A stretch of 20,402 bases of DNA. Source: a virus. Numbering within the stretch: the first letter of the stretch is position 1; each line of letters opens with the position of its first letter. Made by a program: the position numbers and the translations under genes. The stretch is taken from the UHGV virus genome UHGV-0166854; one strand, 5' to 3'. The notes under the pieces are model-generated. The model was not told the origin of the DNA, did no database searches, and saw only the letters and a list, made by a program, of their open reading frames with translations. This document shows positions 2,663-3,523 of this stretch, piece by piece.

Positions 2663-3523
2663 TTACACGTGTTTTTCCAATGTGAAAACTACAGCCCCGG
2701 CAGGAGTAATGTCTGTAATGTTGCATTCAAACTCAGCAGACTTATTTGACAACCTGACTTTTCCACCGGGCAAGCGAATTACATCAAAAACATCAAGAGC
2801 GCCGTCGATATCAATTAACCAGCGACCATTACTTATATTCGAAGCAGAACAGTCGACAAGCCAAGAGGCAGCTACACCGTCAACAAAAATCAATTCCCCT
2901 GAGTTAGAAGGAATCATTGAGGGGTCAGGATGCCACGTTCCTGCATCCTTAAGCTCACCAGATTCAAGACGAGATTTTTTAATAGAAAAACCAGATGTGA
3001 CATCTTCCCTGTTAGCTCGCATTTGCCCCTTGCCTGTTGCTAACCATTCCAGTGACGTATCGGTATCAAGAGCGCATGTAACAACAACATCACCAGGGAA
3101 AAAATCTCGCCTTACCCATGTGCTAATTGTGCCAGAGGAAATGCCGAGCAAATCACCGAGCTCCTTTTGCATGGTAAAGCCATACGCATCAAGAATCCTA
3201 CGCAAAACGGTTTTACCACCATTCGTCATAATCTCGTCATAAAGCTCTTTGCCTTTTAACTTGCAACTGGCTCGCTCGTGATTTGCATTTGCAAGTTCTC
3301 CATTTACAAGCCAATTGATATCAGCTCCCGTGTCAAGACAACACCTAACTATGACATTGCCAGGTATTGCATCACGCTGAACCCAGCCGCTAACGCTGTG
3401 TTTAGCGATACCTAGCAGGTCAGCCAAATCCTTTTGCATCTTGACCCCATAGGCTGACATTAAGCGTTCCAATACGCCGTTCGTTGCACTAACACGCCAC
3501 TGAACATCAAGCTCAGAACTCAT
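2663..3523 (-). CDS. cI: 186-type CI immunity repressor with tandemly duplicated N-terminal HTH domain (286 aa)
   Basis: Two internally homologous segments (LERLMSAYGVKMQKDLADLLGI..WV.RD..PG.V.V.C.LDT....WL..G and LRRILDAYGFTMQKELGDLLGI...) resembling the phage CI HTH domain, followed by a C-terminal domain. Sits divergent from the apl/cII operon. No LexA-like Ser/Lys peptidase domain seen. Confidence 0.8.
   Translation of the reverse strand: MSSELDVQWRVSATNGVLERLMSAYGVKMQKDLADLLGIAKHSVSGWVQRDAIPGNVIVRCCLDTGADINWLVNGELANANHERASCKLKGKELYDEIMTNGGKTVLRRILDAYGFTMQKELGDLLGISSGTISTWVRRDFFPGDVVVTCALDTDTSLEWLATGKGQMRANREDVTSGFSIKKSRLESGELKDAGTWHPDPSMIPSNSGELIFVDGVAASWLVDCSASNISNGRWLIDIDGALDVFDVIRLPGGKVRLSNKSAEFECNITDITPAGAVVFTLEKHV

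Follow-up and report, generated by a model that had tools for sequence, protein, structure and literature searches.

The stretch of DNA analysed here, 20,402 nucleotides of UHGV virus genome UHGV-0166854 (hereafter the window), carries cI, the immunity repressor gene of a PSP3-type (Eganvirus) prophage, at positions 2663–3523 of the minus strand (stop codon included; 286 aa in the list of open reading frames). The gene heads a leftward lysogenic operon together with the integrase gene int (1253–2293, minus strand), and a DUF2511 gene (2316–2654, minus strand) lies between the two. It faces the promoter pR and a rightward lytic operon, in which a gene for a 123-aa protein without a Pfam family (orf30; 3645–4016, plus strand) comes first and which contains the CII gene (PF06892; 4049–4558, plus strand). 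The layout int/cI/pR/cII was that of the PSP3 and 186 records. The window repressor shared 99.7% identity with the CI protein of Escherichia phage vB_EcoM-613R3 and 97.9% with that of Salmonella phage PSP3 (orf29, NC_005340), and 90% of the window matched the vB_EcoM-613R3 phage record at 98.3% identity. In RefSeq the product is named 'phage repressor protein CI', and PHROG family phrog_4 ('transcriptional repressor') covered residues 2–283. The window gene is a known and common protein, the PSP3-type CI, and our confidence in its identity and domain architecture is very high.

Several neighbouring genes deserve mention in their own right. The DUF2511 (YebY-family) gene at 2316–2654 encodes a signal-peptide-like N-terminus and is a moron of the lysogenic operon; L024, a Salmonella relative, had a gene with a weak WYL match in its place. 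The 123-aa protein encoded at 3645–4016 had no Pfam match at E < 0.01. Its gene occupies the position of apl in 186, although the two proteins are unrelated, and its PsP3 counterpart has been called a singleton (PMC3448106). The protein contains an HTH-looking stretch (MTVKDFAATRGVSERLVWQWLDEG), and it probably serves the PSP3-type group as a Cox/Apl-like protein for switching and excision. In E. coli strain S3 the prophage adjoins yfiB, with an 810-bp hypothetical gene (window positions ~327–1136, plus strand) separating yfiB from the prophage integrase. In phage record ON470592, where the prophage likewise adjoins yfiB, the flank showed no match to window bases 1–1285; an extra cargo gene or islet may lie at the attachment site. 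The same twin record, ON470592, contains a 60-aa ORF labelled 'UV induction of prophage' followed by a DinI-like ORF (window ~7922–8338; 8137–8553 in locus L019). Repressors of the 186 type are induced through a Tum-type antirepressor and not by RecA-stimulated autocleavage. Tum of 186 is one protein of some 146 aa, and the two ORFs may represent a split or alternative antirepressor module.

In a Pfam search the 286-aa protein matched PF07022 (Phage_CI_repr, HTH) twice, with an overall E of 1.3e-52, and its residues 180–277 matched PF16452 (Phage_CI_C; E = 1e-20). A sequence-only reading of this DNA had proposed a tandem duplication of the N-terminal DNA-binding domain ahead of a single C-terminal domain, and these matches confirm that the duplication is real. 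An HMM built from both copies delimited the outer head D1 at residues 14–78, the inner head D2 at 103–168 and the C-terminal domain (CTD) at 181–283, while residues 1–88, compared with 88–178 by BLASTP, gave 37/74 identities (50%, E = 4e-25) with a repeat period of 89 residues. The repeat is thus significant in self-alignment, and its extent and roughly half identity had been read correctly from the letters.

On the minus strand, D1, the added head (PF07022), is encoded at 3290–3484 and includes a variable recognition-helix segment, IAKHSVSGWVQR (residues 39–50; 3374–3409). The D1–D2 linker (residues 79–102; 3218–3289) consists of a disordered stretch and then a short conserved helix, LKGKxLYDEI..GGK. 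D2 is encoded at 3020–3217 (best PF07022 stretch at residues 106–169), with its nearly invariant recognition-helix segment ISSGTISTWVRR at residues 128–139 (3107–3142). The 186-type multimerisation domain (PF16452) is encoded at 2675–2983. The order in the window CI is D1, flexible linker, D2, short linker and 186-type CTD.

Both heads are recognisably those of 186 CI. Residues 13–72 of that protein, which has 192 aa and one head, in line with the earlier reading, aligned with D1 at 40% identity (E = 3e-13) and with D2 at 36% identity (E = 1e-14). Residues 105–280 of the window CI aligned with the whole of 186 CI (PDB 2FJR, residues 9–183; E = 6e-22), and single-headed relatives all aligned to query residues ~100–285. 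From this collinearity we conclude that D2 and the CTD together correspond to a complete 186-type CI, and that D1 and the linker are the addition. In an AlphaFold2 model the three domains folded separately, as two five-helix heads (pLDDT ~80) and a beta-rich CTD (pLDDT ~90). The linkers at residues 77–91 and 170–177 were of low confidence, with pLDDT <50 at 77–91, and a helix was modelled at 92–100. The modelled CTD superimposed on the CTD of 186 CI (2FKD) with a TM-score of 0.89 and an rmsd of 1.6 Å, and the sequence match between the two had E = 2.4e-9. In the single-chain model the geometry between domains was undefined (pTM 0.38), and a fixed D1–D2 pseudo-dimer was rejected on that ground.

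The two-headed form is widespread. Among the 120 best 90%-identity clusters of a large protein database, 119 had proteins of 267–290 aa with PF07022 and PF16452; the exception (P0113) was a 208-aa protein without the CTD. The cluster hosts were Enterobacterales, including Klebsiella, Enterobacter, Citrobacter, Salmonella, Escherichia, Cronobacter, Pantoea, Brenneria and others. The cI gene with its promoter segment was present at ≥99% identity in 37 complete E. coli genomes and had matches in 68 of 5426 genomes. A set with one genome per species yielded 15 further two-headed loci (46–87% identity, including Pectobacterium, Serratia and Ewingella) and one single-headed relative (L018). Among the best 150 representatives of 50%-identity clusters, 77 had a single head and a CTD and ~15 a double head and a CTD. 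Two heads plus a CTD are a substantial and established minority form of the CI family and the rule in the PSP3 group. That the architecture is out of the ordinary is refuted by the homologues, since its length and arrangement are the common form of the PSP3 group. Other relatives had still more heads: P0237 (323 aa) has three full HTH heads but lacks the CTD, and P0214 (525 aa) has six partial HTH matches.

In trees of the individual heads, PSP3-type D1s and D2s fell into separate groups (D1 monophyly in 98/200 bootstraps), which points to one old duplication in this type. Two other lineages share the composition of two PF07022 heads and a CTD with the window CI, namely CI of Klebsiella phage 4LV2017 (Elveevirus) and the P0184/P0196/P0199 lineage, at 313–358 aa. 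They differ from the PSP3 type in that their heads are more alike (51–67% identity) and their linkers longer. The 50%-cluster representative closest to the 313-aa 4LV2017 CI (P0137) was 51% identical to it, and the two heads of P0137 were 62% identical to each other. They grouped with a different set of single-headed CIs, and in 190/200 bootstraps their clade contained no PSP3-type head. The six heads of P0184/P0196/P0199 were monophyletic in 154/200 bootstraps. Taken together, the head clades of PSP3, of 4LV2017 (P0137) and of P0184/P0196/P0199 indicate that the tandem head arose at least three times in the CI family.

Ten fold and DNA-contact positions were invariant in both heads across 38 aligned relatives: Y25/Y114, Q30/Q119, L33/L122, W47/W136, R50/R139, C61/C150, T65/T154, W71/W160, L72/L161 and G75/G164. 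The linker region had invariants of its own (G91, K92, Y95, G102 and G103). The most conserved part of the protein was D2, with a mean identity of 82%, as opposed to 66% in D1 and 50% in the CTD. In an alignment of 128 PSP3-type proteins, column entropies added up to 60.8 bits in D1 and to 20.8 bits in D2, where the recognition-helix columns had values near zero. The D2 helix was exactly ISSGTISTWVRR in 108 of the 128 proteins and differed by 1–3 residues in the remainder, whereas the D1 helix occurred in 23 distinct variants. The major D1 helix types, counted in clusters, were IAKHSVSG (48, the type of the window), IYANNISS (30), VPSNSVST (14) and IHANNVSS (10), and every D1 type was paired with the same D2 helix.

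Substitution rates argued that neither head is idle. Within a helix type, D1 had a pN of 0.01–0.12 against a pS of 0.41–0.74 (dN/dS 0.01–0.04); between helix types its pN rose to 0.24–0.42. For D2, pN was 0.03–0.20 and pS 0.45–0.89. Over both heads, pS was 0.41–0.97 in all pairs tested, a range in which the Jukes–Cantor correction saturates and fails for about half of the estimates. The high pS with low pN indicates that both heads are kept by selection at the protein level and not by recent DNA exchange, and both appear to be functional. The CTD followed a different course in loci L008 and L013 (Brenneria/Pectobacterium), where the heads had pN of 0.02 and 0.07 and the CTD a pN of 0.47. It has therefore been exchanged independently of the heads, and the repressor behaves as at least three shuffling modules.

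A candidate for the lytic promoter pR was located at 3553–3581 on the plus strand (TTTACA, 17-nt spacer, TATAGT; 10/12 matches to the consensus), the sole strong sigma-70 match in 2200–4200. Its core, TTTACAG-N13-GATCTAWAGT, was kept in most related loci, with departures in L015, L017, L021 and L024. The GATC in this core (3572–3575, plus strand), a Dam methylation site, abuts the −10 box and is conserved in most PSP3-type loci; it is not universal, being GAAC in L021 and GATT in L024. The site may make pR activity or repressor binding depend on methylation state. A candidate lysogenic promoter pL facing pR was found by eye at 3635–3663 on the minus strand (TTGATT, 17-nt spacer, CATTAT). With an 8/12 match it falls below the threshold of the promoter scan, and its conservation is confounded by the start of orf30. 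Its position mirrors that of the annotated pL of 186 (U32222).

The DNA around pR and D1 diverges between phages as one block. When the window was compared with five phages of other D1 types, DNA identity was 79–95% in orf30 and its leader, fell to 50–68% between the pR −10 box and the cI start codon (ATG), 53–56% in the N-terminal tail and D1 and 57–67% in the D1–D2 linker, and rose again to 75–82% in D2 and 69–89% in the CTD. This divergent immunity island (3218–3583) comprises the pR −10/−35 region, the 5' end of cI, D1 and the linker, and all five between-type comparisons contained such a low-identity island (50–68%) inside flanks of 69–95%. By these segment-wise identities, the variable island consists of the pR −35/spacer DNA and D1, and D2 lies outside it. 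D1 is co-inherited with the pR −35/spacer DNA as one divergent island.

Candidate operator units overlap the −35 box of pR. In the window they are two direct repeats 22 bp apart (3533–3567, plus strand), TACAGATAATTTT at 3533–3545 and TACAGAAAACTTT at 3555–3567; taken by itself, this pair (11/13 matches) is within chance for an AT-rich region of 120 bp. Other D1 types had promoter-proximal repeats of their own at this place, with ACTCAAAATCGAT and ACTCATTTTCGAT at lag 21 in L005 and L024, CGAAATTAATTTTTGC and CAAAATTAAAATTCGC at lag 21 in L021, and CAAyAATAwTTTTG and CAwCAAAATTTTwG at lag 18 in L007 and L025. The promoter-proximal DNA was conserved within a D1 type and different between types. 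In an autocorrelation with one locus per D1 type, lag 21 alone was significant (0.44, z = 5.2; reached in 0 of 2000 shuffles), and it was still the best lag with the −10 box excluded (p = 0.0035). The IHANNVSS type had its best lag at 18 bp, not 21. Some elements of the Pectobacterium group looked inverted rather than direct by eye, and in L006/L023, which have both helices as in the window, the upstream DNA nevertheless aligned loosely. The single-headed L018, with its D2-like helix, had a different-looking candidate operator, ATCTTGAC-N10-GTCAAGAT, also identified by eye.

RNA polymerase places its own constraint on the conserved boxes over −35 and −10, and the upstream box overlaps the cI ribosome-binding site. 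Across the pR regions compared, a DNA box specific to D2 could not be told apart from the RNA polymerase hexamers or that ribosome-binding site. An upstream 'O1' box resembling the −35 box was discarded as independent evidence because its conserved core, CCACC, complements the cI Shine–Dalgarno sequence, and CGATCTATAGTG was discarded as a repeated D2 box because its further copies in the window (6, with 10.8 expected) did not exceed chance and because some loci lack its GATC. Three candidates for distal operators or further CI sites, all inside orf30 and not conserved in PSP3, which has the same CI, were likewise set aside: a near-copy, CTACAGACAAT, at 3756–3766; a 17-nt inverted match, 3561–3577/3709–3725; and a 14-nt inverted repeat at 3694–3728 (93% complementary, 7-nt gap), which is probably no CI operator. 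No conserved sites like the distal FL and FR operators of 186 were found. The PSP3 promoter pB, upstream of the ogr-like gene, was considered as a further CI-regulated promoter; its GCAAA repeats have nothing convincing in common with pR.

These observations led us to a model in which D1 sets the immunity specificity of a 186-type repressor and D2 is its common anchor, a reading to which we give slightly better than even chances; that D1 is the specificity head is, taken singly, somewhat more likely than not. An old tandem duplication of the ~89-residue N-terminal unit would have given a 186-family CI its second HTH head. Each subunit would then have two flexibly tethered heads that both bind DNA, the constant inner one being D2 and the variable outer one D1. 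D1 would read the variable, phage-specific part of each operator unit (the ~21-bp direct repeats over pR), and D2 would read, or anchor on, the common part. Under this proposal a D1–D2 pair is asymmetric, so the units would be direct and not inverted. With the units phased two turns apart as in 186, oligomers formed through the CTD would bind cooperatively over pR. Repression of pR would shut off the lytic operon (orf30, cII and beyond), and the facing pL would keep cI and int expressed. The assignment of the heads to operator sub-sites is our inference from sequence comparison, and the geometric details of the arrangement are much less certain than the roles of the heads.

The sequence-only reading had suggested that a two-headed repressor could have altered operator spacing or specificity and may define a distinct immunity group. 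An altered operator architecture or specificity remains plausible. The form does not define one immunity group, since more than 20 D1 helices occur on one near-constant D2 helix; for the same reason, variation of D1, rather than the duplication itself, most likely separates immunity groups.

Two other divisions of labour between the heads were weighed. D1 could be the sole sequence-specific head, with D2 as a structural or non-specific DNA-wrapping module kept constant through contacts with a partner that is itself conserved, for instance another D2 next to it, the linker helix or the wheel of CTDs. We consider this unlikely. Conservation of D2 above all other parts, even the CTD tethered to it, would be in keeping with such a role, as would the fact that a D2-specific DNA box is inseparable from the RNA polymerase hexamers; the most invariant segment of D2 is, however, its recognition helix, which would be unusual in a purely structural module, and the swap of the CTD with D2 constant (L008 versus L013) speaks against co-adaptation of D2 and CTD.

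Less probable still is the converse arrangement, in which only D2 binds operators and D1 is a regulatory appendage, for docking or decoying a Tum-like antirepressor or for contacts between subunits, with its variability reflecting an arms race. Such a reading implies one operator set for all these phages, which the variable pR DNA contradicts. D1 moreover keeps all the invariants of D2 and of the 186 N-terminal domain, including Q30, W47 and R50 flanking the HTH, its variation is concentrated in the recognition helix, and it co-varies with the pR −35/spacer DNA. On the other side stand the completeness of D2 plus CTD as a 186-type CI, the single-headed L018 and P0133, which have a near-identical D2 helix and must bind DNA through it, and the 'UV induction of prophage' and DinI-like ORFs of twin record ON470592.

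That a wrong start codon or a two-gene fusion disguises a single-headed repressor with an internal start near residue 99 is hardly credible: M99 does sit at the beginning of the D2 unit, but it is not conserved (L in L005 and L008–L014), on which ground an internal start giving a single-headed isoform was also rejected, strong purifying selection acts on the D1 coding region (within-type dN/dS 0.01–0.04), and the ORF is found at full length in >120 clusters and also in isolated phages.

The preferred model, with D1 as specificity head and D2 as anchor, can be extended. Tentatively, and with clearly less than even odds in our judgement, two-headed CIs might form a distinct functional class, in which a constant inner head is combined with a fast-diversifying, plug-in outer head to read asymmetric direct repeats of ~21 bp, and which evolved at least three times. 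If so, an oligomeric scaffold like that of 186 would carry constant and outer heads in alternation on one face of the helix, and a new immunity could arise by swapping or mutating D1 and ~60 bp of promoter, with the rest of the switch untouched. Three points matter most here: D2 is invariant whereas D1 is hypervariable, D1 is inherited together with pR, and tandem heads have originated repeatedly and independently. Two-headed CIs are common in prophages of Klebsiella, Enterobacter, Salmonella and E. coli, yet databases describe them only as 'phage repressor protein CI'. They offer a way to ask how heteroimmune phages arise from a shared scaffold, and D1 swaps are a possible route to orthogonal repressor–operator pairs.

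A very close known counterpart is PSP3 itself. D1 and D2 of the window CI were 100% identical to those of PSP3 (L001), recognition helices included, and the pR regions differed at few bases only; by sequence, the two CIs presumably confer the same immunity. The length of PSP3 CI has been ascribed to a longer C-terminal domain (PMC3448106). This is a misattribution, as the extra length is D1. We found no description of, or experiment on, the two-headed form, PSP3 CI included, in the open-access literature; a prior notice may exist in subscription journals.

Two less closely related repressors provide functional parallels. The C repressor of P2 is a small (~99-aa) single-HTH dimer unrelated in sequence to the window CI, and its likeness is functional only. 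Its direct repeats are spaced by about two helical turns. According to PMC2995052, it is an immunity repressor of the P2 family that recognises non-palindromic direct repeats. CI and C have been reported as not alignable (PMC3448106), and the Pfam and PHROG scans gave zero matches of the window CI to the P2 C family. A monomeric mycobacteriophage repressor binds an asymmetric site with two domains, according to PMC9283540, and is a precedent for two different DNA-binding modules per chain reading an asymmetric operator. It differs from the window CI in that its second module is not a duplicated HTH and that it is monomeric and unrelated in sequence.

The switch of 186 is among the best-modelled alternatives to that of lambda, with a logic of identical heads, carried by a wheel of seven dimers, on palindromic sites two turns apart. 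At its pR, 186 has three CI operators spaced by two helical turns (PMC3675496; U32222 annotation). Both repressors consist of PF07022 and PF16452, with one head in 192 aa in 186 and two heads in 286 aa in the window, and both cI genes have the same genomic role, as the first gene of a leftward operon with int that faces a pR operon (cII, fil). The operator-like units at pR, candidates in the window, appear to lie two turns apart in both; the repeats are direct-looking in the window and inverted in 186. The phasing would thus be shared with 186, and direct-looking units are what an asymmetric D1–D2 reading unit would predict. Two non-equivalent heads per subunit provide a way to ask how operator symmetry, spacing and wrapping change, and the architecture of the window CI is an uncharacterised variant of the 186 kind of repressor.
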